From Candidatus Bipolaricaulia bacterium (GTDB lineage Bacteria > Bipolaricaulota > Bipolaricaulia > M55B111), in contig JBDGQU010000197.1 in the NCBI GenBank assembly GCA_042218715.1, positions 1-38,501 of the forward strand: 38,501 nt of DNA, in the 5' to 3' direction. The notes below the pieces were generated by a model that was given only the letters and a program-made list of their open reading frames with translations, had not been told where the DNA came from and did not search any database. This document shows positions 2,777 through 28,361 of the stretch, one piece after another (position 1 is the first letter of the stretch; each line of letters starts with the position of its first letter). Position numbers and translations under genes: made by a program.

Positions 2777-2808
2777 CCAGATTCTTGAACCCAATCAAGG
2801 AGATCAGG

Positions 2809-3206: not shown

Positions 3207-3218
3207 CTAGCTAGTATC

Positions 3219-3247: not shown

Positions 3248-3276
3248 TGAGTGTAAATTGATTTCGAGGAGGAAAC

Positions 3277-4746: not shown

Positions 4747-4750
4747 TGAA

Positions 4751-5113: not shown

Positions 5114-5119
5114 ATCGCC

Positions 5120-8752: not shown

Positions 8753-9670
8753 ATGCAGGTAATTATTACCGGAGGAACAGGATTAATTGGTAAAAAACTG
8801 GTAGAAGAACTCTCAGCGGCCGGTCACAGGTCGGTTGTCCTATCACGGAACCCGGGGGAACGAGAGGTACCTGGTGACTCCGTGCTGGTGAGGTGGGACG
8901 CCAGATCGCCGAGCGGATGGGTAGAATGGGTCGAAGATTCCGACGCGATCGTAAACCTGGCAGGGGAAAACATTGCCGGCAAAGGGTTGATCCCCGACAG
9001 ATGGACGCCGCGTAAGAAGAAAGCAATACTAAATAGTCGGTTAAAAGCAGGTGAAGCGGTGAACCAGGCAGTGGAAAAGGCGAAGGATAAGCCGCAGGTA
9101 CTGATCCAGGCCTCGGCTATCGGTTATTACGGAACAAGGGAAAGAGATAAGACCGAGGATTCCTCACCGGGAGATGATTTTCTGGCGGATACGGCCAAGA
9201 AATGGGAAAAGATAACGTCCCCCGTGGAGGAGATGGGAGTCAGGAGGGCGGTAATTCGGACTGGAATCGTACTGAGTTCCGAGGGCGGAGTACTTCCGAG
9301 GTTGATCTTGCCTTATAGGCTTTTTCTCGGAGGACCCCTTGGGTCGGGGAAGCAGTGGTATTCCTGGATTCACGTAGCCGATGAAGTGAGGGCAATAAGG
9401 TTCCTATTGGAAAACGAAGATGGGGAGGGTCCGTTTAACCTGGTTGCTCCCAACCCTAGGCGGAATTATGAATTCGGAAAAGAGCTAGGAGCGGTTTTGG
9501 ACCGGCCCTCGTATTTGAGAGTCCCGGGTTTTCTATTCAAAATACTGCTAGGGGATGCCTCTAAGCTAGTTCTAGAAGGCCAAAAAGTTAAACCTAAGAG
9601 GCTAGAGGAACTGGAATTCGAATTTGATTACCCCACACTGGAAGAGGCCCTGAATGACCTACTGAGCTAG
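8753..9670 (+). CDS. TIGR01777-family NAD-dependent epimerase/SDR (YfcH/SDR39U1-like)
   Basis: ITGGTGLIG, NLAGENI, RW....K..I..SR, ASAIGYYG, GSGKQWYSWIH, GPFNLVAP, GQKVKPKRL. Confidence 0.9.
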   Translation: MQVIITGGTGLIGKKLVEELSAAGHRSVVLSRNPGEREVPGDSVLVRWDARSPSGWVEWVEDSDAIVNLAGENIAGKGLIPDRWTPRKKKAILNSRLKAGEAVNQAVEKAKDKPQVLIQASAIGYYGTRERDKTEDSSPGDDFLADTAKKWEKITSPVEEMGVRRAVIRTGIVLSSEGGVLPRLILPYRLFLGGPLGSGKQWYSWIHVADEVRAIRFLLENEDGEGPFNLVAPNPRRNYEFGKELGAVLDRPSYLRVPGFLFKILLGDASKLVLEGQKVKPKRLEELEFEFDYPTLEEALNDLLS

Positions 9671-9883
9671 AAGTAAGCAGGGGATTGAAGGTAAAGAAAC
9701 CGGGAATCCTGCTTTAGTCCGGGATAACGTGATCATTGTCAACATACAGCTGGACCGAGAAGTTGGGTAGCCTACACACAAGCACGAAGGAGTCTTTCAG
9801 TTCCTGCGACTACAGTGAAGAACCTATTTTACTGATTTTCCCCCGAGAGTTGCAGCACTCAAACCACGGCGATGCCCTTTAGT

Positions 9884-9912
9884 TTGACAGTGGGGCATTC
9901 GATATGTAAAAT
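9884..9912 (+). promoter_or_regulatory. Strong sigma70-type promoter of the hydrogenase operon
   Basis: TTGACA-17 bp-TAAAAT. Confidence 0.75.
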
Positions 9913-9945
9913 AAAGATGTGAAAGCGTTTATGTTCACAATCTTT
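9913..9945. promoter_or_regulatory. Candidate operator palindrome over the transcription start
   Basis: AAAG-ATGTGAA-(10 nt)-TTCACAA-TCTTT. Half-sites match Rex half-sites but the spacer is 10 nt, not 4. Confidence 0.4.
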
Positions 9946-10174
9946 TATCTTTTCGCTACGTAATAACGCATTACGACCTCCCTTTAGAACTGGATACCTT
10001 AATTTACGGTTTCCGTCGATGTTGATCTGAGAATAAAAGCAACAGCCAATAACGGTAACTTTTAGTAGCAGCGAGGAAACGAAATCGGCAAGGCTGTAAA
10101 TTAATTTGAGGTCTAACGGTACCAGGTTAATGAATTACTAATCCGTTGGCCGTTAATAAGGTAGGGGAGGTATT

Positions 10175-11209
10175 ATGGATGTCTATAAAACGAGCGAGAG
10201 GGATTTTCTTGCTCTCTTAGAGGACATCGCATCCCGAAGAGAACTATTCGTTCCTGCAGAATATCACGGGGAGATAACTTACAAAAAGTGGGATGATCTG
10301 AACCATTCCGCGGTTCAATTCCCGAAAAATAGGATTGAGACTCCTCCCAAAGTTTTCTTCTTTCCTCCCAAAGAAGAGGTCTCGAAATTTCCCGCCGGAA
10401 AAGCAGAATCGGAAAGAAGTAAAAGGGCTATTTTCGGGCTCAAGGCTTGCGATCTATCTTCTTTCAAAGTACTCGATAACATTTTTCTCGACGAGGGGTT
10501 CGTAGATCCTTTCTACGCCATTAGACGCCACGATACGTTGCTGATTTCGAGTGACTGTTACGAAGTGTCGGATACTTGTTTCTGCAATAAAGTTGGGGGG
10601 CAACCTTACCCGGAAAAAGATTTCGACTTAAACGTAATTAAAGTCCCGGGCTTAGAGGATTTCATCGTCGAATTTAACCCCGAATCCCTGGAAGCCCAGG
10701 AAATTTATGACACGAACTCCAATCTGTTTGAACCCGTAACTGAAGAAACTCTGAAAAAAAGAACTGAGTTCCGGATCGAACAAAAAGAAGAGCTCAACGA
10801 AAAAAATAGTTTCTTCGAGATACCGGAAAACGTAGGAGATATTCCACCGGACAATCCCATCTGGGGAGAGCTGGCAGAGGATTGTGTGGAATGTGGTGCC
10901 TGTAACCTTTCCTGCCCGACATGCCACTGTTTCCAGCTTTACGAAACGGAAGAAGGCTCTTCAGTCAATCGAAATAAAGTCTGGGACAGCTGCAATTTCA
11001 AAGGGTACAGTCGCGTGGCAGGAGGAGCTAACCCGATGGAATCGCTCGAAAGCCGCGTCAAGAACAGATTTTACGATAAATTCGACAGGATGGACGAAAA
11101 TTATGGCTTTTCCGGTTGCACCGGGTGTGGAAGATGCATCGACGGATGTATGGGTGAGATTGATATGAGAGATGTCCTTAAGGAGGTTGCCGTTGAAAGT
11201 AAGAGCTGA
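10175..11209 (+). CDS. AsrA/HydB (sulfhydrogenase beta)/FlxBCD-like 4Fe-4S protein
   Basis: PPK.FFFP, FGLKACD, C...SDTCFC, CVECGACNLSCPTCHC, WDSC, CTGCGRCIDGC. Confidence 0.88.
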   Translation: MDVYKTSERDFLALLEDIASRRELFVPAEYHGEITYKKWDDLNHSAVQFPKNRIETPPKVFFFPPKEEVSKFPAGKAESERSKRAIFGLKACDLSSFKVLDNIFLDEGFVDPFYAIRRHDTLLISSDCYEVSDTCFCNKVGGQPYPEKDFDLNVIKVPGLEDFIVEFNPESLEAQEIYDTNSNLFEPVTEETLKKRTEFRIEQKEELNEKNSFFEIPENVGDIPPDNPIWGELAEDCVECGACNLSCPTCHCFQLYETEEGSSVNRNKVWDSCNFKGYSRVAGGANPMESLESRVKNRFYDKFDRMDENYGFSGCTGCGRCIDGCMGEIDMRDVLKEVAVESKS

Positions 11210-12044
11210 GATAAAAGAAGCCCTGAAAACCAGCGGTAATCCTTATAGATCAATTCCCGCAAAGATAACCGACATCGATGTCGAATCACCCAATATAAAG
11301 ACTTTCCGGCTTAAACCGGAAGAACCAATGGAATTTGCCACAGGGGAGTTTGTCCAGTTATCAGTACCGGGACTTGGAGAGGCACCGTTTACACCCTCTT
11401 CCTCCCCGAACGTGGCGGATAAGCTGGAGATTACCATCATGGAAGCGGGCGAAGTAACTGGAAAGCTTCACGACACCCCTCCTGGAGAAACGCTGGGAAT
11501 AAGAGGACCTTATGGAGAGGGATATCCGCTGGAGGAAATGAAGGGCCGGGATATTCTAGTCGTTGGCGGCGGAGTCGGTCTGGCGCCGCTTAGGTCTCTT
11601 TTATACATGTTATTGGATAAACCCGGAGCTTACGGAAAAATAAGTTTAAAATACGGCGCCCGGACCCCCGATCACCTTATCTATAAGGATCAGTTAGAGG
11701 AGTGGGACAGCGGCTCGATAATTGATCTGGAATTAACCGTAGACGAAGCTGACGATAGCTGGGAAGGGAATGTCGGCGTAGTAACCACCCTTCTAGAAGA
11801 ACCGGGAGTTGATACGGATGATGGCCTGGCAGTGGTGTGTGGCCCTCCGATTATGATGAAATTCACGGCTCAGGAGCTACTGAACCACTTTGACCCGGAA
11901 GATATTTACCTTTCCCTGGAGAAAAATATGAGCTGTGGCTTCGGCATGTGCGGTCACTGTCAGTTAGGGAAATACTACGTATGCAAGGATGGGCCCGTAT
12001 TTACCTATGACCAGGTAAAGGACATACCCGATTTGTGGGAGTGA
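11193..12044 (+). CDS. AsrB/HydG (sulfhydrogenase gamma)/FlxA-like FAD/NAD(P)-binding [2Fe-2S] subunit
   Basis: GEAPFT, IRGPYG, GGGVGLAP, YGART, CGPPIMM, MSCGFGMCGHC...VCKDGP. TTG start at 11193 follows AAGGAGG. Confidence 0.88.
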   Translation: MKVRAEIKEALKTSGNPYRSIPAKITDIDVESPNIKTFRLKPEEPMEFATGEFVQLSVPGLGEAPFTPSSSPNVADKLEITIMEAGEVTGKLHDTPPGETLGIRGPYGEGYPLEEMKGRDILVVGGGVGLAPLRSLLYMLLDKPGAYGKISLKYGARTPDHLIYKDQLEEWDSGSIIDLELTVDEADDSWEGNVGVVTTLLEEPGVDTDDGLAVVCGPPIMMKFTAQELLNHFDPEDIYLSLEKNMSCGFGMCGHCQLGKYYVCKDGPVFTYDQVKDIPDLWE

Positions 12045-12050
12045 ATTTAA

Positions 12051-12581
12051 ATGAAAACTTCCTCAGTATCCAAAGTAGAAGAAAGGACTCTGTTGCTGGA
12101 CCTGGACGTGTGTGACAGCGCGGATTGTGATAATTGTGAAGCTGACTGCAGCAATAACGTTCATCCGAATAATAAGGGAATTACAGAACTTAGAGAGCAG
12201 GCGACTTTTGCTCACTACTGCAGGCAGTGCGAGAATCAGGCATGTCTTGAGGCTTGTCCTGTAGATGCTCTCGATAAAAACGAGGCCGGTATCGTGGAGA
12301 GAGCGAATCTGTTATGCATAGGTTGCGATTCCTGCGTTGTGGCCTGCCCGTTTGGCACGATATACCCAGAATTTATACCGTTTTTTGATTCCAGCTGCGA
12401 CCTCTGTAAAGACAGGCCGGGCAAACCTTCCTGTGTATCCAGCTGCCCTTATGATGGACTAAAATCAGTACCGTCAGGACATGAACCGGAAGGGGAGGAC
12501 TGGCACGAAATGAGAGATGGGCTATTCGTTCACGTTAGTAGCTGGAAGCCCGAATTAATAGCTGGTAAAGGGGGTGAATAA
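12051..12581 (+). CDS. Four-cluster Fe-S electron-transfer protein (HycB/HydN/CooF-like)
   Basis: Four Cys groups: CDSADCDNCEADC, CRQCENQACLEACP, CIGCDSCVVACP, CDLC...CVSSCP. Confidence 0.85.
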   Translation: MKTSSVSKVEERTLLLDLDVCDSADCDNCEADCSNNVHPNNKGITELREQATFAHYCRQCENQACLEACPVDALDKNEAGIVERANLLCIGCDSCVVACPFGTIYPEFIPFFDSSCDLCKDRPGKPSCVSSCPYDGLKSVPSGHEPEGEDWHEMRDGLFVHVSSWKPELIAGKGGE

Positions 12582-13510
12582 TGGTTGGAGGGCTATTATT
12601 CAACTTTTTCGTCTTTCCAGGGCTCTTATTTACCCTGGTGTTAGGAATAATAGCTTCCTGGGTAGTTAGAAAGGTGTCCGCTCTCGTACAGTGGAGGGTA
12701 GGCCCGCCGCTGCTTCAACCAGCCTACGACATCGCGAAACTTTTCGGAAAAGAAAATATAATACCGTCTGGCAGCGTGGAATGGAGCTATCTTATAGCAC
12801 CTCTGCTGGGACCTGCGGGATTACTTCTGGCATCGATTATTCTAGTAAAAGCAAACTACCTCGGTACTTCATTTATAGGCGACGTCATAGTTGTGCTGTA
12901 TCTATTGATATTGCCAGCGCTTTCCATAGTGCTCGGGGGAATGTCCACGGGGAACCCCCTGTCGGGCCTGGGGTCAAACCGCGAGTTGAAGTTAATGTTA
13001 TCATACGAATTGCCCCTACTTCTCTCTATAACTGCGGCCATAGTCAAATCCGGAGGCCTTAAGATCGTAACTTTTACTGCTCAACCGATTGCTGCAAGCG
13101 TCTCGGGTGCACTTGGTTTTATCGCAGCTTTATTGTGCATCCAGGCCGAACTGGGATTTATCCCGTTCGACATACCGGAGGCGGAGACGGAGCTAATGGG
13201 GGGACCTCTGATAGAGTACTCCGGTCCTTTACTAGGACTTTACAAGATTTCCCATTTGATGGCTCTTTTAGTTCTACCCCTCTTCCTTGTTACCGTTTTC
13301 CTCGGCGGCTTCAGTACGGGCTGGGGGGCACTCTGGGGAGCCATAAAATATGTACTGGTTCTGGTCGGCATAATTTTAATTAAAAACACCAATCCGAGGC
13401 TAAGGTCCGACCAAGCCCTAAAGTTTTTCTGGTATGGGGCAACGCCCCTGGCACTCCTTGCTCTGGTGCTCGCGGTCGTAGGGGATCTAGTCGGATTAGG
13501 CTGGGTATAA
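12581..13510 (+). CDS. Membrane-bound hydrogenase subunit, NuoH/HycD/MbhM family
   Basis: QWRVGPPLLQP.YD..KL..KE, PFDIPEAETEL.GGP..EYSG, NPRLR; multiple TM helices. Confidence 0.92.
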   Translation: MVGGLLFNFFVFPGLLFTLVLGIIASWVVRKVSALVQWRVGPPLLQPAYDIAKLFGKENIIPSGSVEWSYLIAPLLGPAGLLLASIILVKANYLGTSFIGDVIVVLYLLILPALSIVLGGMSTGNPLSGLGSNRELKLMLSYELPLLLSITAAIVKSGGLKIVTFTAQPIAASVSGALGFIAALLCIQAELGFIPFDIPEAETELMGGPLIEYSGPLLGLYKISHLMALLVLPLFLVTVFLGGFSTGWGALWGAIKYVLVLVGIILIKNTNPRLRSDQALKFFWYGATPLALLALVLAVVGDLVGLGWV

Positions 13511-13529
13511 ACCGGGAGGAATCTAAATA

Positions 13530-13976
13530 ATGAATTGGAAAAGTTGGGGAATAAGCAAATCTCCCTGGCTCTATCACGTTAACACGGGCTCCTGCAATAA
13601 TTGTGATATTGAGATAGTTGATTGCTTAAGCCCAAAATTCGATGTAGAGAGATTCGGAGGGAAACTGGTAGGTTCTCCCAGGCACGCTGATGTACTAATG
13701 GTAACGGGACCTATGACCCGTAAATCAAAGCCAAGATTTGCACGGGTTATGAAAGCTTCTGCTAAGCCGTTTATCGTCGCGGCCGTGGGTACATGTGCCT
13801 GTTCCAAGGGAATGTTTCACGATGCTTATAACTGCGTTGGTCCCGTGAGAAAAGTCACCGAAGACATCGAGGAAGATATTATGGTTCTGAATATTCCTGG
13901 TTGCCCACCTAGGCCGGAAGCAATTATCGACGGATTAGTCGCGGGACTCAACAAGCTAAGGGAAGTGGAAGTATGA
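13530..13976 (+). CDS. Group 4 hydrogenase small subunit (NuoB/HycG/MbhJ family)
   Basis: GSCNNCDIE, SPRHADV..VTGP, GTCA, PGCPPRPEAI. Confidence 0.93.
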   Translation: MNWKSWGISKSPWLYHVNTGSCNNCDIEIVDCLSPKFDVERFGGKLVGSPRHADVLMVTGPMTRKSKPRFARVMKASAKPFIVAAVGTCACSKGMFHDAYNCVGPVRKVTEDIEEDIMVLNIPGCPPRPEAIIDGLVAGLNKLREVEV

Positions 13977-14431
13977 ATCCTTCGACGTTTAAAGATGAGT
14001 TATCGGGCAGGTTCGGTTGGAAACTTGGAAACACTAAAGAGAGCGAAGGAAGGTTATATCTGACTCCTGAACCGGAAATTTTAGATGAGCTTATCGAGGA
14101 AATTTTTGAGGAGAATAACGGTCGACTGGCAACTATATCCTGTGTCGACGAAGAAAGTCAATTTAAGCTTCTATATCACTTCGCACTCGATCACGAGGGC
14201 TTCATTACGACGGTAAAATTGCCGGTCGACAAGGATGGAGACCCTAGCACGGAGTCAATCGCGAATCAAATACCCGGAGCGGAATGGATAGAGCGGGAAA
14301 TAATGGAAATGTTCGGGGTCGATTTCCACAACCATCCCGCAAAGAAGAGGTTGTTAAAGGCTGAAGCGCTCGATGACCAGGACTTCCCCTACAGAAAGGA
14401 TTTCAACGTTGAAGACCTGGAGGAGAACTAA
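13973..14431 (+). CDS. NuoC/MbhK-family subunit
   Basis: RLATISCVD, LLYHF, A.WIERE..EMFGV.F..HP...RL. Confidence 0.9.
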   Translation: MNPSTFKDELSGRFGWKLGNTKESEGRLYLTPEPEILDELIEEIFEENNGRLATISCVDEESQFKLLYHFALDHEGFITTVKLPVDKDGDPSTESIANQIPGAEWIEREIMEMFGVDFHNHPAKKRLLKAEALDDQDFPYRKDFNVEDLEEN

Positions 14432-14432
14432 T

Positions 14433-15632
14433 ATGGCGACAACGATACCCATAGGACCGTATCATCCCCTGCAGGAGGAGCCCGAACACTACCTTCTCAC
14501 AGTTGAAGAGGAAGAGGTAATCGACGTCGACGTACAGATAGGATATAACCATAGAGGAATTGAGAAGCTATCCGAAAAGAAGTCTTTCAATCAAATTCCG
14601 TTTCTCGTGGAGCGGGTTTGCGGCATCTGTTCTCACTCCCACCCTTACGCTTACTGTCTGGCAGTAGAGGATTGTGGAAACATCGAAGTTCCCGAAAGAG
14701 CAAAGTATATTAGAACTCTGATAGGCGAATTGGAGAGAATCCACTCTCACCTGCTCTGGGCAGGATTAGCCGGGCACTTTATAGGTTATGACACAGTATT
14801 TATGTGGGGCTGGAGGTACAGAGAGGAAGTACTTGATATACTTGAAAGTCTCACCGGAAACAGAAACGCCTACGCCATGATGAAGCCGGGAGGAGTCCAA
14901 AGGGAGATAAAGAGGGAGGATTTAGATGGAGTGCAACAGACCCTGGAAACGCTAAAAGAGAAGGCGGAAATGTTATACGGAGCCGTACTTGATGATCCCG
15001 TATTGAAGGCGAGATTGGAAGGAGTAGGGGTCCTACCCGAGGAAGATGCGCGGGCCTACGGAGCACTGGGGCCGACTTCAAGGGCTTCGGGGCTTCCCGC
15101 TGACGTGAGATGCGATTTTCCCTACGGAGTATACGATAATCTGGACTGGAAAGTAATAACCCGAGATGCCGGAGATACGCTTGCCCGGGTGGAAGTGAGA
15201 CTTCTCGAAACCCTCGAGTCGATAAAGATGGCTGAACAAATCATTGACGACATCCCGAACGAGGGCCCAATTGACTCGGAACCGGAAGAAGTTCCACCGG
15301 GAGAGGGGATTGGAAATTATGAAGCACCTCGAGGAGAATGTTTTCATTACCTTCAGAGTGATGGATCGAACCGGCCGATACGACATAAGATTCGCGCCCC
15401 TACTTTCATGAACTTTCCCACTTATAAATCTACGTGCGAAGGCGAAACCGTCTCGGACGCGACGATAATCCTCGCCTCCGTCGATCCATGTTACAGCTGT
15501 ACGGAACGAGCTATACGTATAAAGAACAAGGAGGAAGTGGATTTAGTGGAATTAAGTCAGAAAAAAACGGCTAAGCTCAAGGAAAAGTTTGAAGTCGAGA
15601 AGAGCCCCCTGGAGGAGGTTCTAGATGAGTGA
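14433..15632 (+). CDS. Group 4 [NiFe]-hydrogenase large subunit (MbhL/HycE-like)
   Basis: GPYHP, HRGIEK, L1 motif ERVCGICSHSH, EAPRGE, L2 motif DPCYSCTER; all four Ni/Fe Cys present; 40-aa extension after L2. Start ATG 14433 after GGAGGAG. Confidence 0.93.
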   Translation: MATTIPIGPYHPLQEEPEHYLLTVEEEEVIDVDVQIGYNHRGIEKLSEKKSFNQIPFLVERVCGICSHSHPYAYCLAVEDCGNIEVPERAKYIRTLIGELERIHSHLLWAGLAGHFIGYDTVFMWGWRYREEVLDILESLTGNRNAYAMMKPGGVQREIKREDLDGVQQTLETLKEKAEMLYGAVLDDPVLKARLEGVGVLPEEDARAYGALGPTSRASGLPADVRCDFPYGVYDNLDWKVITRDAGDTLARVEVRLLETLESIKMAEQIIDDIPNEGPIDSEPEEVPPGEGIGNYEAPRGECFHYLQSDGSNRPIRHKIRAPTFMNFPTYKSTCEGETVSDATIILASVDPCYSCTERAIRIKNKEEVDLVELSQKKTAKLKEKFEVEKSPLEEVLDE

Positions 15633-17499
15633 TATTGGAATTTATGGACTGGCGCTGCTGGTGATACCTCTGGGAGCCAGTCCGATAATCTGGGTAATAG
15701 GGAAGGTTAATGGCAAACTCAGGAACTCTTTAACCCAAATTATTACATTGGGCCTCTTTGGTTTCTCGGTTTCTCTTTTTCCAGCCGTTCAATCTGGAAA
15801 TCTGGAATTTCTGAGTAAAGTAATTGGAGGATTAACGATAACTTTCGGAGTGGCTCCCCTCTCGTTACTAATGGTATCTTTAATTTCGTTTCTCTCTTTT
15901 CTCGCTTCAGTCTTTTCCCCAGCTTACTTAACGAGGTACGAAAGCTCCCAATTAAACGAAGACAAATATTATAGCGTCCTCCTTGTCTTCATGGCGGGAA
16001 TGATTGGGGCGGTGACCTCTGGGGAGCTTTTTTCAATGTTTTTGTTCTGGGAATTAATGACTTTAGGGGCGTATTTCTTGGTCGTATTTGAGAACACAGG
16101 AGTGGCGATTAAGGCCGGAAATAAGTATTTCTTGATGAGCGAAGCCGGGGCCCTATCTATTATAGCCGGGATAGTCCTTCTCTGGACGGAAACTGGAACT
16201 TCCCAGGTAAGTGCCATTCATAGCATAATGAGCTTACCGCCGGAGATGAAAACTTCTATCTTGGCCCTTTTCCTGGTCGGTTTCGGGGTGAAAACGGCTT
16301 ACTTTCCTCTTCATTCTTGGGTACCGGAAGCTTACCCTGAATCCCCTTCGCCGATCTCAGCCCTGCTCTCCGGAGCTATGAAGAAGATAGGTTTATTCTG
16401 GATAATTCGGATATTTTGGGAGATCTTCGAGGTATCGCCCTCGTGGAATAGCGCCTTAGCTGTAATTGGTGCCTTCACAATAGTAATTGGGGGGCTGCTT
16501 GCAATCGTCCAGAACGACTTAAAGCGGTTAATAGCTTACTCTAGCATATCACAGGTTGGATATATTATGCTGGGAGTAGGGATAGGAACGGGACTTGGAA
16601 TCACGGGTGCAATAACTCACCTGCTAAACCATGCCCTGTTTAAAGGACTGTTATTTCTCGGGGCTGGGATAGTCATTTATATGACAGGCACGAGGAAGCT
16701 GGACGAACTAGGCGGACTGGGTAAAGAAATCCCGGTAGTCTTCGGTTCGGTCCTTATTGGGATACTTTCGCTGGCCGGAATACCCCCGTTGAACGGGTTC
16801 TACTCAAAGTGGATTTTATACCAGGCTACCGTGGACTTCGGGCGAGGTTTCGCCCCTTTTCTCCTGGTAGCCGCTCTCTTTGGTAGTACCCTTTCAGTCA
16901 TCTACGGCGCTAAGTTCCTTTTCTCGGCCTTCTTTGGGAATGTAGGAAATAAGCTAAAAAGGTATCCCGGATGGGGTATGAAATCCGCTGTCGGGGTCCC
17001 TGCACTTTTGTGCATAGCACTCGGTGTGTATCCGAGACTATTGCTTGATTCAGTCAGGCCAATAATCGGTCAAATCCCTGCTTTCACAGGAACATGGACG
17101 GCTTATATGGCAGCAGCCTTCTTACTTGGAGCCATAGTAGTAGGGGTGGGAGCTTATTCCCTTTTTGACTTGAAGAAGCACTCTACTCGTAAACCGGTTT
17201 TCCTGGGGGGAGAGAACGAAGAAACCATAGACGAGGAGATGTATTTTCCCTACCTCAAGGAACTCGACTTCAAGGTCTATCCTTCGGAAATTTATAACAG
17301 TATAAAGAGTTCCAGGTTAGTTAACTGGCTCTTCGTCGCCGAAGAACGAAAATTCATAGATCTCTACGCGGCAATTAGCTGGGTGGGCAAAGCGTTTACC
17401 AGGTCGTTCAGGTGGGCTCATAACGGGCTCCTCTCCAGATACCTGGTCTGGGTATTTTCCGGTTTGATCGTGATATTATGGCTTCTGACAACACAATAA
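15625..17499 (+). CDS. Large antiporter-like subunit (MrpA/NuoL/HyfB family)
   Basis: FWELMT, GVKTAYFPLHSWVP, LKRLIAYSSISQ, HALFKGLLFL, GIPPLNGFYSKW; C-terminal H.GLLS.Y helix. Confidence 0.88.
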   Translation: MSDIGIYGLALLVIPLGASPIIWVIGKVNGKLRNSLTQIITLGLFGFSVSLFPAVQSGNLEFLSKVIGGLTITFGVAPLSLLMVSLISFLSFLASVFSPAYLTRYESSQLNEDKYYSVLLVFMAGMIGAVTSGELFSMFLFWELMTLGAYFLVVFENTGVAIKAGNKYFLMSEAGALSIIAGIVLLWTETGTSQVSAIHSIMSLPPEMKTSILALFLVGFGVKTAYFPLHSWVPEAYPESPSPISALLSGAMKKIGLFWIIRIFWEIFEVSPSWNSALAVIGAFTIVIGGLLAIVQNDLKRLIAYSSISQVGYIMLGVGIGTGLGITGAITHLLNHALFKGLLFLGAGIVIYMTGTRKLDELGGLGKEIPVVFGSVLIGILSLAGIPPLNGFYSKWILYQATVDFGRGFAPFLLVAALFGSTLSVIYGAKFLFSAFFGNVGNKLKRYPGWGMKSAVGVPALLCIALGVYPRLLLDSVRPIIGQIPAFTGTWTAYMAAAFLLGAIVVGVGAYSLFDLKKHSTRKPVFLGGENEETIDEEMYFPYLKELDFKVYPSEIYNSIKSSRLVNWLFVAEERKFIDLYAAISWVGKAFTRSFRWAHNGLLSRYLVWVFSGLIVILWLLTTQ

Positions 17500-17514
17500 C
17501 GGGGTTGGTTTAGG

Positions 17515-18063
17515 ATGGTACTTATCCAGGTATTTTTGGTCTTTACAATAATTGCCGCCTTAATAGCTGTCGAGGCTCCGTCCGCACTCTCTTCAATTAT
17601 TTCACTGGGGGCGGTGGGTTTCGGCCTTAGTATTGCCTTTTTGTGGCTCGGAGCACCGGATATCGCGATTACGCAGGTGGTTGTTGAGATAATTACCCTG
17701 GTAATTCTGATAAGGGCCACGATAGGTAAAGGCGTGACTGAAATCAGGGGAAATGAGAGCAAACCTCTGTTAATCGGTAGTTTGATCCTTTTTGGCCTGG
17801 GTTCGGCCTTTTTTGCAAATTACCTCAGTGCTTTTCCTGAATTTGGAAAATCCGCCATGGACGTATTTTCTGATACTCCAAGTCAGTTTTACCTGAAATA
17901 TGGACTTGAAAAAGCAGGTGGGTCTAACATAGTAAACGACATTCTCCTGGACTTTAGGGCCTATGACACCCTTGGCGAAGCCACTGTTCTGTTTACCGCC
18001 ATCCTGGGGGCGATAACTCTGCTTGGCAAAAACGTTTTCATTGGAAAAGGAGGGAATGAATGA
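17515..18063 (+). CDS. MbhD+MbhE-like fusion (homologous to MrpA C-terminal parts)
   Basis: APDIAITQ..VE and NIVNDILLDFRAYDTLGEATVLF motifs. Confidence 0.85.
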   Translation: MVLIQVFLVFTIIAALIAVEAPSALSSIISLGAVGFGLSIAFLWLGAPDIAITQVVVEIITLVILIRATIGKGVTEIRGNESKPLLIGSLILFGLGSAFFANYLSAFPEFGKSAMDVFSDTPSQFYLKYGLEKAGGSNIVNDILLDFRAYDTLGEATVLFTAILGAITLLGKNVFIGKGGNE

Positions 18064-18503
18064 GCGGAATGAGCCCAATAGTAAAGACGGTGACCCGATG
18101 GGTCTCCCCGTTCATCCTGGCGTTTGGAGTTTACATTGCCCTTACCGGACATCTCACCCCGGGTGGAGGTTTCCCCGGAGGTGTAATCATTGCCGGTTGT
18201 TTCGTATTGCTGATGCTTGCCTACGGAAAGGAAAAGGTCTATGGGGTATTTGACCTGAAATCCGCTTCTGCTACCGACAGCCTGGCTTCCCTGTCCTTCC
18301 TCTGTATGGGTCTGCTGGGTTACGTATTCGGAGGCGGATTTCTCACTAATTTCATTCAATCCGGTTTTCCCGGAAAGGCGTTCAAACTGTTAAGTGGCGG
18401 CAATATGCCGATAATCAACATAGCCATTGGCCTTAAGGTAGGAGGGTCGCTATTCGTCGTATTTGCCTACCTCGCCCTGTTTCGAGCGGTCGAGGAGGAC
18501 TGA
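18060..18503 (+). CDS. mnhB: MrpB/MnhB (MbhF) subunit
   Basis: GHLTPGGGFPGG, LLSGG, IGLKV. Confidence 0.88.
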   Translation: MSGMSPIVKTVTRWVSPFILAFGVYIALTGHLTPGGGFPGGVIIAGCFVLLMLAYGKEKVYGVFDLKSASATDSLASLSFLCMGLLGYVFGGGFLTNFIQSGFPGKAFKLLSGGNMPIINIAIGLKVGGSLFVVFAYLALFRAVEED

Positions 18504-18505
18504 AG

Positions 18506-18856
18506 ATGTTTACTTACTTACTCGCATTTGTTCTTTTTGCGGTGGGGCTATATAGCGTAATAAACAAGCGAAACCTGATTAAGATCATTATGGGGATAAT
18601 CATTATGGAGCACGCCGTAAATGCCTTCTTGATCCTTGTTGGTTACAGGATCTCCGGAAAAGCACCGATACTTGACAAGGAAATGACGGTAACGGAATTC
18701 GTCAACTCCGCAGTGGATCCTCTACCACAGGCACTTGTCATTACCTCGATCGTCATAAGTCTTGGAGTGGTGGCGTTGATGGTCGCCCTTGCCGTGAGGT
18801 TATATCAGCACTACGGCACCTTTGATATTACGGAAATTAGGAAATTAAGGGGGTAG
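18506..18856 (+). CDS. mnhC: MrpC/MnhC (MbhG) subunit
   Basis: NLIKII.G, DPLPQALVITSIVI. Confidence 0.9.
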   Translation: MFTYLLAFVLFAVGLYSVINKRNLIKIIMGIIIMEHAVNAFLILVGYRISGKAPILDKEMTVTEFVNSAVDPLPQALVITSIVISLGVVALMVALAVRLYQHYGTFDITEIRKLRG

Positions 18857-18862
18857 TCAAGT

Positions 18863-20368
18863 ATGCTCCCACTGTTTGTTGCTATACCTTTAGGAGTTGG
18901 ATTCACCCTACCTTTGATCGAAGAGTTCCGGGAACGAACACGATTGTTTGCCCTTACTGTGATCCTGGAAACCGGATTGCTGCTGGCTCTATCCCTCATC
19001 AAATTTGGTGAAAGAAGTATATACCGTATGGGGGGCTGGCCGCCGCCAATAGGCATCAACTACGTGCTTGATGGGTTGAGCTCTGTTGTTTTAGTCGTGA
19101 TTAGCGCTATAGCTTTCGTGACTTCCCTGTTTTCCCTGACTTACATGAGCGAATACGATAATCTGGGGAAATTTTACGGGTTGTTCTCACTGATGCTTGC
19201 GGGAATGTACGGTGTGACCTTAACGGGCGACGTTTTCAACATGTACGTCTACCTGGAAGTAGCTGCCATAAGCTCGTACGCCCTGGTCGGGTTCAACAGA
19301 GGGGCAGAGGAGCTCGAAGCGTCTTTTAAGTATTTGATTATGGGAGCGTTAGGTTCGATCTTCATATTACTTGGTATAACTATGCTATATGGGTCCGTCG
19401 GCTCACTTAACATTGCCGATATCTCCGTGAGGGTGAGCGAGGTTTCCGACCAATCCTTTATTCTACTAAGTACTGCTCTCTTCATAGTAGGATTCGGTCT
19501 AAAAGCTGCATTTATACCGTTCCATTCCTGGCTACCTGACGCCCACTCGTCAGCACCCACGCCGATTTCAGCAATGTTATCAGGGGTTCTAATAAAGGTT
19601 CTGGGAGTTTACGCCCTCTCGCGGATCCTGTTCAACGGATTGAATCTTCCCCATCTTGCACCCCAGATAATGACCTGGATTGGGGCAGGATCCATGTTTA
19701 TTGGTGGAATGATCGCTCTGGGTCAGTCGGATTTAAAGAGATTACTGGCTTATTCAAGTATCTCTCAGATGGGATACATCACTCTGGGACTGGGTATGGG
19801 AGGCATATTTATCTCTCAGGGCAAGCCCGCGGTGGCTACTCTTGCTCTTATCGGGGGAATTTTCCACCTAGTAAACCACGCCACTTATAAATCGCTACTC
19901 TTCCTGTTTAGTGGAGGTGTCGAACGGCTGTTTGGTACTCGAAATCTATCGGAAATCGGCGGACTAACCAAGGTCAGCCCGGTTTCCGGTGCTACGGGAA
20001 CTATTGGTACGCTATCAATTTCAGGCTTACCTCCGTTCAATGGGTTCTGGAGCAAGTTGGTAATCGTAATAGCGGCAATATGGGGCGGCAAATATCCATT
20101 GGCCGGGATAGTTCTATTTACCAGTGCAATTACACTTGCTTATTATCTTAAAGTCCAAAAGGAGCTATTCCTCGGAGAAGTAATTGGGGAAATAAAGGAA
20201 AAAGGTAAATTATCGCCGGGAATCTACGTTCCTTTATTGATCCTGGCTATCTGTTGCATCGGTCTCGGGTTACTCTATCTCCCTGCAATTCGAGGAGTAG
20301 TGCTTAAACCGGCTGCTCTGGCCCTAAAGGAAGGATCCGAATATACAAAGCTCGTACTCGGCTTATAA
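18863..20368 (+). CDS. mnhD: MrpD/MnhD (MbhH) antiporter subunit
   Basis: GGWPPPIGI, TGD.FN.YV..E, EASFKY, PFHSWLPDAH, LKRLLAYSS, GLPPFNGFWSK. Confidence 0.9.
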   Translation: MLPLFVAIPLGVGFTLPLIEEFRERTRLFALTVILETGLLLALSLIKFGERSIYRMGGWPPPIGINYVLDGLSSVVLVVISAIAFVTSLFSLTYMSEYDNLGKFYGLFSLMLAGMYGVTLTGDVFNMYVYLEVAAISSYALVGFNRGAEELEASFKYLIMGALGSIFILLGITMLYGSVGSLNIADISVRVSEVSDQSFILLSTALFIVGFGLKAAFIPFHSWLPDAHSSAPTPISAMLSGVLIKVLGVYALSRILFNGLNLPHLAPQIMTWIGAGSMFIGGMIALGQSDLKRLLAYSSISQMGYITLGLGMGGIFISQGKPAVATLALIGGIFHLVNHATYKSLLFLFSGGVERLFGTRNLSEIGGLTKVSPVSGATGTIGTLSISGLPPFNGFWSKLVIVIAAIWGGKYPLAGIVLFTSAITLAYYLKVQKELFLGEVIGEIKEKGKLSPGIYVPLLILAICCIGLGLLYLPAIRGVVLKPAALALKEGSEYTKLVLGL

Positions 20369-20371
20369 AAG

Positions 20372-20908
20372 GTGATTACGTTGGAAGAAACACAAACTGA
20401 GCTAAAGTTTTCGAAAACCGTATTTGTATTTGCAATAACGCTGGGGGTCTGGCTTCTATTTACGTGGCCTTTTGCGCCGGTTGACTGGGCAATGATAGTG
20501 GCAGGTTCGCTGGTTTCCCTGCTCTCCGGAATTCTTCTCGGCGGAATAGCTACTGAACACCCGATCAAGGGGCTAAACCCCCTCCGATACTTCTGGGCCG
20601 CCTGTTACGTATTTACCCTCGCCTGGTGGGTTATGGTCGCAAACTTGGACGTAGCTTTCCGGGTATTACACCCCGATGTTCCAATTAATCCGGGAATAGT
20701 CAAAGTAAAGACCAAGCTGGAAAGCGAATCGGCAAAGACAGCTCTGTCCAATTCGATTACCCTGACTCCGGGGACTATGACGGTAGATCTATCCGAGGAT
20801 GGTTATCTTTACGTTCACTGGATAAACGTAAGTTCGACAGAAGTAGAGGAGGCGACTCGTGAGATTGTTGGGAGGTTCGAGTGGCTACTTAGGAGGGTAT
20901 TCGAATGA
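20372..20908 (+). CDS. mnhE: MrpE/MnhE (MbhA) subunit
   Basis: ANLDVA, PINPGIV, NSITLTPGT, LYVHW. Start may be TTG 20381. Confidence 0.9.
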   Translation: MITLEETQTELKFSKTVFVFAITLGVWLLFTWPFAPVDWAMIVAGSLVSLLSGILLGGIATEHPIKGLNPLRYFWAACYVFTLAWWVMVANLDVAFRVLHPDVPINPGIVKVKTKLESESAKTALSNSITLTPGTMTVDLSEDGYLYVHWINVSSTEVEEATREIVGRFEWLLRRVFE

Positions 20909-21162
20909 TTGGTTTTGCTTTGAGTCTTTTGACATTATCGGCTTTTCTCTGTCTGTTCCGCATAGGATCGGGTCCTACCCCCGCCGATAGGATGGTAGGA
21001 ATAGATATCCTAGGAATTCTCGTTGTAGGTTTTTGTGCACTTTTCGCAGTCATCACTGATAGAGCTTTTTATCTGAATATAGCGCTTGCCTGGGGTTTGC
21101 TTTCTTTTATCGGCACCACCGCTTTAGCAAAACATCTGGAGGGTAAGAACTTCGATGAGTGA
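20905..21162 (+). CDS. mnhF: MrpF/MnhF (MbhB) subunit
   Basis: R...GPT.ADR.V..D, LSFIGT.ALAK.LE. Confidence 0.9.
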   Translation: MIGFALSLLTLSAFLCLFRIGSGPTPADRMVGIDILGILVVGFCALFAVITDRAFYLNIALAWGLLSFIGTTALAKHLEGKNFDE

Positions 21163-21478
21163 ATTAGCCGGAAACGCGATTATCATAATAGGAGCCTTGT
21201 TTAACCTTTTCGGCTGTATCGGCTTGATTAGGCTCCCCGACGTCTATAATCGACTTCAGGGGGCGACGAAATGCGTCACGCTCGGGACCTGTTCGATTCT
21301 GTTGGGAGTGCTAATAGGTTCGGGAGTTAGCTCGACAGGAATGAAGGCTCTCGCGGCAATTGTTTTCATAGCTATAACTGCTCCCACCGCCGCTCACGCC
21401 CTTTCCCGAGGCGCCCACAGGTCCGGGATACCGTTATGGGAAGGCAGTGTCGTAGATAAGTACGAGGAGGAAAAATAA
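21155..21478 (+). CDS. mnhG: MrpG/MnhG (MbhC) subunit
   Basis: GLIRLPDVYNRLQ.ATK..TLG, TAP.AAHAL.RGA. Confidence 0.9.
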   Translation: MSELAGNAIIIIGALFNLFGCIGLIRLPDVYNRLQGATKCVTLGTCSILLGVLIGSGVSSTGMKALAAIVFIAITAPTAAHALSRGAHRSGIPLWEGSVVDKYEEEK

Positions 21479-22092
21479 TGCAGAAGCCAAAAATCCGGGA
21501 GCTTGCCGAGGCAATAAGGGCCGTATTCTCTCACAGATTTACGTCTAGATTCCCCAAAGAAGAAGCAGACGTAGCTTCGTCATTTAGGGGAGCACCAGAC
21601 TATCAGGACGATGGATGTATAGGTTGTTCGGGCTGCTACAACGTATGTCCCGCCGACGCCATAGACCTGGAAGATTCAGTTACCGGTACCGACGGTATCA
21701 GACACCTCAGGGTAAACTTTGAAGAATGTATATACTGCGGTCAGTGCGAGAAGTACTGTACGACAGGGGAAGGAATCGAGCTTTCCCAGGAGTATTCACT
21801 TGCGTTCGTAGGGGATGAGGGGCCGTCAACGAGCACGGAGAAGGACCTGGTTATATGTGACGCTTGTGGTGAGGTCCTGGGGACCAAGGATCACGTTCTC
21901 TGGCTCTACAGTAAGCTGGGAAATCTTGCTTATTCAAATCCAAGTATTTTCCTTACTTATCTCGAGAACCTGGACCTTGCCAGAAGGGATAGGTTGAACG
22001 AGCGACCGAGCCACCGCAGCGACAGGGTCAGGGTACTCTGCCCAGAATGCAGAAGGGAATTGACGATAATTGAACAGGGCGAGGAGTCGTAG
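21478..22092 (+). CDS. NuoI/HycF/MbhN-like 2x[4Fe-4S] subunit with an extra C-terminal Cys domain
   Basis: FRGAP, CIGCSGCYNVCP, CIYCGQCEKYC; additional CDAC...CPEC pair. Confidence 0.88.
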   Translation: MQKPKIRELAEAIRAVFSHRFTSRFPKEEADVASSFRGAPDYQDDGCIGCSGCYNVCPADAIDLEDSVTGTDGIRHLRVNFEECIYCGQCEKYCTTGEGIELSQEYSLAFVGDEGPSTSTEKDLVICDACGEVLGTKDHVLWLYSKLGNLAYSNPSIFLTYLENLDLARRDRLNERPSHRSDRVRVLCPECRRELTIIEQGEES

Positions 22093-22393
22093 GAAGGAAA
22101 ATTGCGAAATCAGAGAACGAGATACTGAAAAACTTCTACCAGGGCTTGTCAAGTCGAACTGAGCTAAATTCGGTTATTGGTCCTATCGGTAAATTTTCTG
22201 GGTACGGAAGCACTCTAATTGGTCTTTGCCATCCTACAAATTTCCCCGGGTTGCGGGAGGTTCTGTAACGTAAGATGGCATAAATTACCTGAATAAACTG
22301 CCGGGCGAGAAACTTGATTCCGAGTCTTGGTTTTTACGGAATGTTAGGGCCATCAGGGCGAAAGTAAGCCCCTATCTCCAAAGGTGAGAAATC

Positions 22394-23020
22394 ATGAAAG
22401 AGCCCGATATACCGGAAGAGACCGTTGAAAGGCTTGTGCTCTATTTGCGTCAACTAGAGAAGTTCTATGATGAAGGGAAGAAGTCTATTACTTCCCAGCA
22501 ATTTGCGGAGAAATTACCAGGAATAAACTCTCACAGTTTAAGGAAAGACCTTACCTACTTTGGCACTTACGGAAAAAAAGGTACAGGTTACGACATTTCT
22601 CGGCTGATAAAGGAATTGAGGAGTACTTTAAGTCTCCAAGCTACAAGGAAAGTTGCTTTAGTGGGGGTGGGGAATTTGGGGACTGCCCTATTGAACTATA
22701 ATGAGTTTGGAAAGTGGAATTTTGACATAACTTTTGCCTTTGATAAAGATCCGGAGCTTATCGGTAGCGAGGTCGGAGGAGTCCAAGTAAGGGATCCCAG
22801 GGTAATGGAGAAGGAACTTCGGGCAGAAGGAGTAAAGATGGCCATAATTGCAGTGCCCGGAGATCAGGCTCAAGTCGTGGCGGAGTCCCTTGTCTCCGTT
22901 GCTGTAGAAGGCATACTTAACTTCGCTCCTGTTTTGCTAGATTTACCTGAGGAAGTTAGAGTAGTTCAGCTGGATATCGTATCCCAATTGGAGAAGATGG
23001 ATTTCTATCTGGAGAGATAA
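22394..23020 (+). CDS. rex: Redox-sensing transcriptional repressor Rex
   Basis: IP..TVERL..YLR, LRKDLTYFG.YGKKG.GY, VGVGNLG.AL, ILNFAP. Confidence 0.95.
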   Translation: MKEPDIPEETVERLVLYLRQLEKFYDEGKKSITSQQFAEKLPGINSHSLRKDLTYFGTYGKKGTGYDISRLIKELRSTLSLQATRKVALVGVGNLGTALLNYNEFGKWNFDITFAFDKDPELIGSEVGGVQVRDPRVMEKELRAEGVKMAIIAVPGDQAQVVAESLVSVAVEGILNFAPVLLDLPEEVRVVQLDIVSQLEKMDFYLER

Positions 23021-23080
23021 AGCCTTAAGGCCCGCCGTCGGTAAATCCTTTCATTCCGCCCATGACTATTAGACTGGGGA

Positions 23081-23117
23081 AGTCAAGAACCCCGCCCTGT
23101 GGGCGGGGTTCTTGACT
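23081..23117. repeat. Perfect 17-bp inverted repeat (hairpin)
   Basis: AGTCAAGAACCCCGCCC-TGT-GGGCGGGGTTCTTGACT. Confidence 0.85.
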
Positions 23118-23255
23118 GTTCAATTGAAGGTTAATGAGCTCTTACCAAATGCGTTCGGGGAGTTTATCATCTGATTTACCGTTAGTTGTAAACTTAGGTA
23201 TAATGGCCTTATTATAAGATCGACAACATATTTGACCGAAAAAGGGGAGGAAAAA

Positions 23256-23483
23256 GTGAAAAGAAACGTTGGTGACATTGATAGCAAGATCCGGAGTAGG
23301 CTGGGTCTGATCTTGGTCCTTTTAGGTGTACTGGGGTTTGTGGGATTGTTAAAAGTGGGACTTACCGTCAATATTGTTTTTCTTGCGGCAGGATTAGTAC
23401 TGTTTTTAACCGGGAGCAGCAGGAGGTGCGGTATATATTCGATTTTCGGCTTTGATACCACAAAACCGGAAACGGAGGAGTAA
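23256..23483 (+). CDS. DUF2892/YgaP-like small membrane protein
   Basis: MKRNVG.ID..IR..LG, two TM helices, C.IYS.FG..T; GTG start after GGGGAGG; TATAAT at 23199. Confidence 0.8.
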   Translation: MKRNVGDIDSKIRSRLGLILVLLGVLGFVGLLKVGLTVNIVFLAAGLVLFLTGSSRRCGIYSIFGFDTTKPETEE

Positions 23484-23538
23484 CTAACCAATTCGAATTA
23501 GTGGCTTTTAATGTAAATAATTTACGGGCGAGGTAAGG

Positions 23539-24885: not shown

Positions 24886-24941
24886 TTATAGCTCCCCGAG
24901 ATTAATTTTTAATTTTCTTTTTTGTAAAGGGTATTGAGTTA

Positions 24942-28088: not shown

Positions 28089-28361
28089 ATGAACCGAGAA
28101 GTAATACATAAAAGAGAATTTACGGATCAGGCCACTGAAAAAGTAGAGAACACTGGTTCTTCCTGTCCCGAGTGTGGAGAAGAATTGGTGGCTACCAGGC
28201 GGGGAGTTACGTCAGCGTTTCCTTCTCCGGCGCTGGAGCGAAAGAGTTGTACAAACTCAAGCTGTAATTACTTCAGATACGTAAAGCTTAATTCTGACGG
28301 ATTTGCGGATAGGGGAGCTTCGAGCCCAAAAAGGAGCACAGATTGCGCAGCGACAAAATAA
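28089..28361 (+). CDS. Small C4 zinc-ribbon protein
   Basis: GGAGG RBS before ATG 28089; CPECG...CTNSSC; 3' end overlaps the ilvD start. Confidence 0.6.

Follow-up and report, generated by a model that had tools for sequence, protein, structure and literature searches.

Which electron partner serves a membrane-bound [NiFe] hydrogenase whose operon opens with a flavoprotein module related to that of soluble group 3b enzymes? This question is raised by a stretch of 38,501 nucleotides (nt) from a Candidatus Bipolaricaulia bacterium (contig JBDGQU010000197.1 of assembly GCA_042218715.1), hereafter the window, in which sixteen genes followed by rex encode an AsrA/AsrB-like pair (HunA and HunB), a polyferredoxin (HunC), a hydrogenase core of NuoH/B/C/D/I-type subunits and a full set of Mrp-type subunits. 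The operon is a Bipolaricaulota member of a described and named, but uncharacterised, family known as Hun. We consider it probable, at roughly 60%, that Hun works reversibly as an ion-coupled NAD(P)H:H+ oxidoreductase with the architecture of formate hydrogenlyase (FHL), a reading that draws on gene content, motifs, synteny, rex linkage and adaptor homology. Hun is widespread in uncultured anaerobes and is routinely treated as a ferredoxin-dependent membrane-bound hydrogenase (Mbh); if its donor were NAD(P)H, metabolic reconstructions would change.

Gene content and the Hun family

The sixteen open reading frames (ORFs), to which the letters hunA to hunP are assigned here by gene order in the window operon, lie co-oriented on the + strand between 10175 and 22092 with gaps of -38 to +19 nt, and rex begins 301 nt further on. 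An earlier note on this DNA, made from the sequence alone, had described sixteen tightly coupled genes with rex behind them, and both their positions and the content assigned to them (HydB/AsrA-like, HydG/AsrB-like, Fe-S, NuoH/B/C/D/I-type and complete Mrp subunits) are borne out by Pfam and NCBIfam profile searches.

9884-9912, + strand: promoter-like site TTGACA-17-TAAAAT, 11 of 12 consensus matches, the best in 9500-23600
9918-9939, no strand: inverted repeat TGTGAA-N10-TTCACA, Rex-like half-sites at non-canonical spacing, in an operator-like position just after the -10 box
10175-11209, + strand: hunA, Fe-S protein resembling sulfhydrogenase I (SHI) beta and AsrA; Fer4_22, 99.8 bits; nearest families HydB/ShyB/AsrA
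11172-12044, + strand: hunB, flavoprotein resembling SHI gamma, AsrB and PyrK; FAD_binding_6, NAD_binding_1 and DHODB_Fe-S_bind, all above cut-off; nearest families HydG/ShyC/AsrB; the start may be 11172 or some later ATG
12051-12581, + strand: hunC, HycB/HydN/CooF-type polyferredoxin; Fer4 families, 16 Cys, four CxxC-type motifs
12581-13510, + strand: hunD, NuoH/MbhM-like membrane anchor; NADHdh, 218 bits
13530-13976, + strand: hunE, NuoB-type hydrogenase small subunit; Oxidored_q6, 91.5 bits
13973-14431, + strand: hunF, NuoC-type subunit; Complex1_30kDa, 86.9 bits
14433-15632 (ORF opens at 14373), + strand: hunG, [NiFe] large subunit; Complex1_49kDa and NiFeSe_Hases
15625-17499, + strand: hunH, MrpA/NuoL-like antiporter subunit; Proton_antipo_M, 236.7 bits
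17515-18063, + strand: hunI, MbhD+MbhE-like (C-terminal part of MrpA); PF13244 and PF20501
18060-18503, + strand: hunJ, MrpB-like; MnhB, 89 bits
18506-18856, + strand: hunK, MrpC/NuoK-like; Oxidored_q2, 93.9 bits
18863-20368, + strand: hunL, MrpD/NuoN-like antiporter subunit; Proton_antipo_M, 218.6 bits
20372-20908, + strand: hunM, MrpE-like; MNHE, 126.5 bits
20905-21162, + strand: hunN, MrpF-like; MrpF_PhaF, 64 bits
21155-21478, + strand: hunO, MrpG-like; PhaG_MnhG_YufB, 86 bits
21478-22092, + strand: hunP, NuoI/HycF-like 2x[4Fe-4S] subunit; C-terminal Cys quartet C127, C130, C188, C191
22394-23020, + strand: rex, NADH/NAD+-sensing repressor; NF003995, 233.9 bits against a cut-off of 126

The large subunit HunG contains, as had been noticed before, all four Ni-Fe cysteines, placed in the two CxxC motifs RVCGICSHSH and DPCYSCTER; these, the NuoB-type small subunit and the NuoH-type anchor are features of a catalytically competent group 4 [NiFe] hydrogenase. 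The hunG gene most likely starts at 14433 (M21), judging from the alignment with MbhL, which opens at residue 23, and from the 406-residue frames of its relatives. HunG ends in a C-terminal extension of about 40 residues (32-50 in 64 of 65 complete relatives), and its best solved relative is MbhL (6cfw_L, 3e-90), followed by HycE (7z0s_E, 6e-83). While its L1 motif reads CGIC, L2 reads CYSC, apparently a frequent variant within the family, since 30 of 67 syntenic loci carry CYSC and 34 carry CYCC. Two subunits of the operon, HunH and HunL, belong to Proton_antipo_M.

A 16-subunit cluster of this kind was named Hun by Glass et al. in Atribacteria JS-1 and other lineages (10.1101/536078). According to the text of that paper, HunAB are similar to AsrAB but come without AsrC; HunC is classed as an Fe-S protein; HunEFGP make up the hydrogenase module, in which the motifs CGIC and CYCC occur; the remaining subunits resemble NuoH and Mrp; and HunG falls into HydDB group 4g. 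The group 4g label used here for the window cluster is taken from papers. The same text lists the operon in Atribacteria, Omnitrophica, Elusimicrobia, Bacteroidetes, a Firmicutes metagenome-assembled genome (MAG) and Kosmotoga isolates (10.1101/536078). In the passages devoted to it by Matheus Carnevali et al., a Saganbacteria region with a hydrogenase, Mrp, cooF, asrA, asrB and a molybdopterin protein is called 'enigmatic' (PMC6349859), and Méheust et al. speak of an 'Mbh-Mrp-oxidoreductase type' with an oxidoreductase of unknown function (10.1101/765248). Given these descriptions, the novelty suggested by the earlier note was overstated; its remark that no characterised complex of this composition is known agrees with the literature searched. 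The relevant parts of the Antarctic-lake MAG papers treat group 4g with Mrp as a ferredoxin-driven Mbh (PMC8542988, PMC9324843), and Bird et al. write 'ferredoxin or NADH', mentioning the reduction of sulfur compounds as well. Nothing on the Hun cluster is found in PMC9586279 (Oman acetogens) or in 10.1101/322537 (Mesotoga). As far as the literature was searched, what is new here is the quantified cross-phylum synteny, the linkage to rex and Rex boxes, the contrast in the HycF-type adaptor and the separation of Hun from the ordinary Mbh of Bipolaricaulota.

The HunAB module and its connection to the hydrogenase

As judged from its sequence, HunB is a predicted NAD(P)H:Fe-S flavoprotein of the FNR/PyrK type, with all three domains and the GGxGxxP and CGPP motifs. 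In an alignment of 31 sequences, which are 50-84% identical to that of the window, the FNR-type motifs RGP, GGxGxAPxR and CGPP..M are invariant, as are the [2Fe-2S] cysteines C255/C260/C263/C271, and 15 Cys are invariant in a HunA alignment of 31 sequences. An FAD/NAD(P) site kept so strictly across phyla would most simply be a site in use. In the solved SHI, HunA has its homologue in the beta subunit (9nez_B, 7.7e-45) and HunB in the gamma subunit (9nez_C, 7.1e-53); this enzyme uses NADPH.

HunA and HunB are set apart from the families that they resemble. Against the NCBIfam group 3b equivalogs (HydB/HydG and ShyB/ShyC), the pair scores 165.4 versus a cut-off of 750, 163 versus 690, 172.4 versus 650 and 179.1 versus 600; against the AsrA and AsrB profiles the scores are 120 bits versus 323 (TIGR02910) and 200.8 versus 288.6 (TIGR02911). 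The earlier note had recorded the large and small subunits of a group 3b enzyme as absent, together with AsrC and Hdr. For the group 3b subunits this holds within the window, and no AsrC-like gene was seen among its ORFs scanned with Pfam; elsewhere in the genome, contig C156 carries group 3b genes as a full operon with beta, gamma, delta and alpha subunits and a protease, and contig C158 an Mvh-type group 3c hydrogenase adjoining an Hdr-like gene set. It might thus be argued that HunAB, even if co-transcribed with the hydrogenase genes, act outside the membrane complex and serve a soluble partner such as the group 3b enzyme or Mvh/Hdr. This is extremely unlikely in our view: the gene order is kept across phyla with genes that overlap or nearly abut, and the HycF-type docking extension described below occurs only where HunABC are present (among the sequences compared, four with and two without). 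Moreover, the 3b operon itself encodes a beta and a gamma subunit, to which HunA and HunB are 28% and 42% identical, respectively, so that the HunAB of the window is a divergent additional copy rather than the soluble enzyme's partner.

The reduction of sulfur by SHI is not regarded as physiological, which speaks against a role of HunAB (together with a Mo-type protein where present) in reducing polysulfide, sulfite or another acceptor, with Hun as an H2-oxidising respiratory complex. This proposal takes up the similarity of HunAB to AsrAB and to the 'sulfhydrogenase' beta/gamma subunits and the sulfur compounds mentioned by Bird et al.; it meets the lack of AsrC or any other catalytic acceptor subunit in the window and the restriction of the Mo-type insert to seven loci, and is regarded here as very unlikely.

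Contig C19 (391-1407, - strand) carries another HunA-like gene, which is 36-38% identical to hunA and recurs in several genomes of the same genus (L118-L121; L numbers denote loci). It was considered as part of a second Hun operon and rejected, as the four copies fetched stand alone, without hunB or hydrogenase genes. Its neighbours in L118 encode an AIR-synthase-related protein and a HAD hydrolase.

Whether the module belongs with the membrane hydrogenase was examined in a cross-phylum survey, in which an alignment of 35 HunA relatives served as the query and one genome per species was scanned. At least 600 pattern matches were obtained, at least 419 of them encoding a HunA relative; the best 80 of these loci were analysed by tblastn with the window proteins, and counts refer to the loci with enough sequence downstream. 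HunB lies downstream of hunA in 74/74 loci, HunC follows in the same order in 69/70, a NuoH-like gene in 65/66, a NuoD-like gene in 56/57 and an MrpD-like gene in 47/48. The sole exception, L052, contains a truncated HunB of 168 residues and then an unrelated gene on the opposite strand. Since the loci were picked by HunA similarity, these figures tie the HunA clade to the hydrogenase and not the reverse. The record titles of the syntenic loci name more than 12 phylum-level groups, among them Planctomycetota groups, Omnitrophota, Latescibacterota, Calditrichaceae, Atribacterota, Thermotogae, Elusimicrobia, Caldisericota, Nitrospirota, Sumerlaeota, Hydrogenedentota, Actinomycetota, Spirochaetaceae, Anaerolineales, Clostridia, Victivallales and Eisenbacteria. 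Because one of the carriers is the cultured Desulfosarcina variabilis (L081), and Kosmotoga isolates are listed in the text of 10.1101/536078, the question of the donor is directly testable.

In seven of the 69 loci with both genes (L014, L015, L023, L047, L077, L083, L086), hunB and hunC are separated by an insert of 1.4-2.1 kb. The one in L014 encodes a 599-residue protein with Molybdop_Fe4S4 as its sole domain, which matches the published descriptions. L014 also carries a TPR protein gene after hunC, and in both L014 and L047 a group 3b delta/alpha pair lies just upstream of hunA.

Within Bipolaricaulota, where the nearest named relatives of the window's proteins are found (Candidatus Bipolaricaulota/Acetothermia MAGs), all 16 genes occur in order on each of the four same-genus contigs fetched (65-94% identical) and on both contigs fetched from another family (29-64% identical). 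A HunA query (E <= 1e-20) matches 14/14 other genomes of the window's genus and 62/184 genomes of the phylum, the latter figure including 3b beta subunits and the orphan paralogue. With HunG as the query, the phylum falls into tiers: 13 genomes with 80-89% identity are those of Hun orthologues; eight have 56-64%, five with HunA matches and three of one genus without; and most others fall at 41-49%, two sampled contigs of this tier (L137, L138) showing clusters of the ordinary Mbh type that lack HunABC. In the portion of PMC6092417 concerned, an 'Mbh A-N' is described in Ca. Bipolaricaulis; it was considered as the same enzyme and set aside as probably different, given that most Bipolaricaulota carry an ordinary Mbh without HunAB. 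The assignment of the AsrAB/HydBG-like pair to the membrane hydrogenase, which the earlier note had proposed to check by synteny, is thereby supported, if indirectly.

The connection between the module and the hydrogenase core would be provided by HunC and HunP, which display the features of an FHL-type adaptor. HunC is a four-cluster, HycB-like protein (1.3e-12 against HycB4, 7qv7_B; 1.4e-8 against FHL HycB, 7z0s_B), and HunP is closer to E. coli HycF (7z0s_F, 2.7e-18) than to MbhN (6cfw_N, 7.5e-10). Beyond its two [4Fe-4S] motifs, HunP carries the quartet C127/C130/C188/C191, which HMMER aligns to the CxxC...CPxC extension of HycF. In E. coli FHL, according to the structural passages of PMC9474812, this extension binds HycB and faces FdhF, and the quartet holds a metal beside the FdhF interface. 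The four Hun-type HunP proteins read (window, L123, L126, L127) have 201-204 residues and the quartet. In contrast, two sister clusters without HunABC (L135 on G096:C5 and L136 on G094:C25, two of the three genomes of the 56-64% tier that lack HunA matches), in which NuoH-B-C-D-Mrp-NuoI stand in Hun order with NuoD 61-62% identical, encode NuoI-like proteins of 158 residues and no quartet; the comparison amounts to a single evolutionary contrast and not a statistic. With FdhF absent from the window, the arrangement fits, by analogy, a complex in which HunC may sit on HunP as HycB does on HycF, with HunAB in the place of formate dehydrogenase. A co-fold of HunA and HunC gave no answer (score 0.00) and speaks neither for nor against docking. 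In L135 and L136, the NuoI-like protein has a low-complexity tail, and Mvh-type group 3c genes lie directly upstream on the same strand, which may represent a different input arrangement.

Outward pumping would suit the thermodynamics of a ferredoxin-driven enzyme, and Hun could be a ferredoxin-only, Mbh-type hydrogenase, which would receive ferredoxin through HunABC or at HunP, evolve H2 and pump ions out, the NAD(P) fold of HunB being structural or vestigial. The closeness of HunG to the ferredoxin-dependent MbhL and the same core in sister clusters without HunABC point in this direction, as does the published view of Glass et al., who in the text concerned infer ferredoxin as the donor of Hun from the analogy to Asr (10.1101/536078). 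We nevertheless hold it unlikely, as HunB shows no variation in its FAD and NAD(P) motifs from phylum to phylum, arguing for a used site, and as a three-protein module of about 800 residues kept in 56/57 loci is hard to explain as a ferredoxin funnel, given that subunits of the MbhN type accept ferredoxin directly.

A dual-donor enzyme has also to be weighed, in which ferredoxin and NAD(P)H both feed or leave the Fe-S chain, either by confurcation-like pooling or by a switch, set by the redox state, among Fd->H2, Fd->NAD(P)+ and NAD(P)H<->H2. The long polyferredoxin chain would offer several surface clusters for this purpose, the module appears interchangeable, as the molybdopterin-type insert in 7/69 loci illustrates, and 'ferredoxin or NADH' is the wording of Bird et al. 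However, HunB is of the PyrK/NfnA/FNR type and no candidate for a bifurcating flavin subunit of the GltD/NuoF type was seen in the operon by Pfam scan; this alternative is likewise judged improbable. In known bifurcating enzymes, a subunit of the PyrK/NfnA/FNR type is the non-bifurcating entry of NAD(H).

Rex linkage and genomic setting

The adjacent NADH sensor pointed out in the earlier note turns out to be a recurrent neighbour. Upstream sequence of 800 nt or more is available for 73 loci; 40 of these have rex immediately before hunA on the same strand, their titles naming Planctomycetota groups, Atribacterota, Latescibacterota, Omnitrophota and Clostridia, and 5/5 of the upstream Rex proteins sampled pass the NCBIfam Rex cut-offs. 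On same-genus contigs, rex follows hunP in two of three with room. Moreover, canonical Rex boxes are concentrated in these intervals: of 20 TGTGAA-N4-TTCACA sites with at most one mismatch in 1.16 Mb of loci, 18 fall in the 56 kb of rex/hunA upstream spans, where they are distributed over 16 of 78 loci. Rex linkage fits a pyridine-nucleotide enzyme, without proving one.

Upstream of the window operon, the situation differs from a canonical promoter with a Rex box. The single strong promoter of the earlier note is retained as the best consensus match (9884-9912), and as a consensus match only, since the scan as a whole does not rise above shuffled sequence (19 sites versus a shuffle mean of 16.5). 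Just behind it, TGTGAA-N10-TTCACA (9918-9939) has no perfect counterpart, with spacings of 2 to 14 allowed, anywhere else in the window or the 1.78 Mb genome. With at most one mismatch, this repeat is present at -234 to -272 before hunA in eight different genomes of the genus (11 of 17 same-genus loci scanned, three genomes being counted twice) and at four sites genome-wide, with no clear regulon; from its sequence and position it is operator-like and may be taken as a candidate operator. The leader of about 250 nt between the promoter-like site and the hunA start (9913-10174), with the inverted repeat at its 5' end, is possibly regulatory; an Rfam scan of 9600-10300 gave a sub-threshold long non-coding RNA match only, and no riboswitch. 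Directly 3' of rex, glucose-6-phosphate dehydrogenase and 6-phosphogluconolactonase genes (23539-25691) encode NAD(P)H producers. The same-genus locus L124 has a group 3b operon adjoining rex instead, so that this neighbourhood is not conserved.

The window corresponds to contig C109 of a MAG of 1.78 Mb (208 contigs, 90.8% complete). Besides Hun, the genome encodes the two further [NiFe] hydrogenases on C156 and C158, two RnfD-type clusters, three strong NuoF-like matches (a fourth is below the cut-off) and an acetyl-CoA synthase. Neither an [FeFe] hydrogenase nor a second NuoD-like gene (E <= 1e-40) was found, absences which in a MAG of this completeness are weak evidence. With its sole NuoD-like gene, two RnfD-type clusters and no [FeFe] hydrogenase found, the genome leaves Hun as the only candidate detected for a membrane-bound route to or from H2. 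No RNA run is listed among the sequencing runs with this stretch, the sole run being DNA of a salt lake metagenome, which is a possible source.

The rest of the window is of a different nature. A signalling cluster (989-5968) encodes a multi-PAS HD-domain protein, a KaiC-like ATPase, a small ORF and a GGDEF diguanylate cyclase. An ORF of 331 residues (6222-7217) without Pfam match (E <= 1e-6) precedes a family 2 glycosyltransferase and an NAD-dependent epimerase. At the other end, a branched-chain amino acid block (28343-38500) contains ilvD, ilvB, ilvN and ilvC, two LeuA/homocitrate-synthase-like genes flanking an isopropylmalate/isocitrate dehydrogenase-type gene and, on the opposite strand, a class IV aminotransferase gene.

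Proposed mechanism and comparison with known systems

In the preferred reading, a single membrane complex would equilibrate NAD(P)H with H2 in a manner coupled to ion translocation, as an 'NAD(P)H hydrogenlyase' with the layout of E. coli FHL; its substrate, docking, direction and coupling ion are what we infer. Electrons would pass from NAD(P)H to the FAD and [2Fe-2S] cluster of HunB, then to the [4Fe-4S] clusters of HunA, and from these through the four clusters of HycB-like HunC and the two of HycF-like HunP to the proximal cluster of HunE and the Ni-Fe site of HunG. Reactions at the interface of HunG, HunE and HunD would either power the Mrp-type module HunH-O or be powered by it.

Fermenters and syntrophs must shed NADH as H2 against an unfavourable potential. 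With NAD(P)H at about -320 mV and H+/H2 at -414 mV (1 bar), the production of H2 from NAD(P)H would draw on ion-motive force other than at very low H2, and for the same reason H2 oxidation with NAD(P)+ could build it. Where Rex control is present, the operon would be expressed under NADH excess, and H2 evolution could then act as an NADH valve. As Rnf is present and no [FeFe] hydrogenase was found, Rnf and Hun together could do the job of Mbh by way of NADH, and NADH from glycolysis might likewise be released as H2. Given the acetyl-CoA synthase, uptake is just as conceivable. Known ways to shed NADH as H2 are confurcating [FeFe] hydrogenases or very low H2. We suggest, tentatively, that next to confurcating [FeFe] hydrogenases and soluble group 3 enzymes Hun constitutes a third, membrane-bound way from NAD(P)H to H2, which would spend Na+ or H+ motive force when Rex senses excess NADH and, in reverse, would let acetogen-like bacteria gain energy as H2 reduces NAD(P)+. 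Such ion-coupled exchange between NAD(P)H and H2, if true, would represent a new bioenergetic coupling site, and its reverse mode an unrecognised energy-conserving step for H2-using acetogens, in a genome that has acetyl-CoA synthase and Rnf-type genes.

Several points weigh against NAD(P)H as the partner of Hun, starting with the published choice of ferredoxin mentioned above. The hydrogenase core can dispense with the module, as the sister clusters lacking HunABC indicate, and HunP or HunC may still be an entry point for ferredoxin. Under most conditions, H2 evolution driven by NAD(P)H is unable to pump ions outward, so that the large pump needs either uptake or the less familiar reverse mode. 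Group 3b enzymes elsewhere link NAD(P)H and H2, and the soluble one in the same genome raises the question of redundancy or of a futile cycle; the sole maturation protease gene of the HycI/HybD type found in the 90.8% complete MAG lies in its operon. Rex linkage is not specific to NADH-using enzymes, since Rex regulons include ferredoxin-linked hydrogenases. In the window, canonical Rex boxes amount to three weak matches versus about two expected, none near the operon, and none occurs genome-wide at up to one mismatch; the N10 repeat has no known binder. Finally, the literature searched, supplements excluded, contains no purification, assay, structure or expression data for any Hun complex.

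Comparison with known systems places Hun at the junction of several of them. With AsrABC of the Salmonella type, HunA and HunB share the domain architecture of AsrA and AsrB, but they score below the AsrA/AsrB cut-offs and the window has no AsrC. With the soluble SHI of P. furiosus (9nez, group 3b), they share homology to beta and gamma, with Fe-S cysteines and FAD/NAD(P) motifs kept; unlike SHI, the operon has no group 3 alpha/delta, the true 3b operon of the genome being that on C156. The MBH of P. furiosus (6cfw, group 4d) offers the closest solved large subunit (3e-90) and is likewise an Mrp-linked, complex-I-like hydrogenase; however, it has a short, ferredoxin-accepting MbhN, one antiporter-like subunit and neither a beta/gamma nor a HycB-like module, whereas Hun, with a different gene order, has the 204-residue HycF-like HunP, two antiporter-like subunits and HunABC.

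The likeness to the Hun of Glass et al. is the most complete, as the window has the same order of 16 genes (AsrAB-like, Fe-S, NuoH/B/C/D-like, Mrp, NuoI last), the CGIC motif and relatives in many phyla, and as the Atribacterota locus L044, with rex upstream and NuoD 60% identical, is syntenic with it. The differences lie in L2, published as CYCC versus CYSC in the window; in rex, which is downstream in the window and upstream in many related loci; and in the phylum, Bipolaricaulota not being named in the text of Glass et al., supplements excluded. As for the plan of the complex, E. coli FHL-1 (7z0s; structural passages of PMC9474812) presents the same succession of an input enzyme, a HycB-type protein, HycF with its quartet, a NuoB-like subunit and the Ni-Fe subunit on a NuoH-like anchor. 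Yet its input enzyme is FdhF, and that of Hun an SHI-beta/gamma-like NAD(P)H module; its membrane arm contains HycC, and that of Hun the full Mrp set with two antiporter-like subunits; and HunG is free of the fused NuoC domain.

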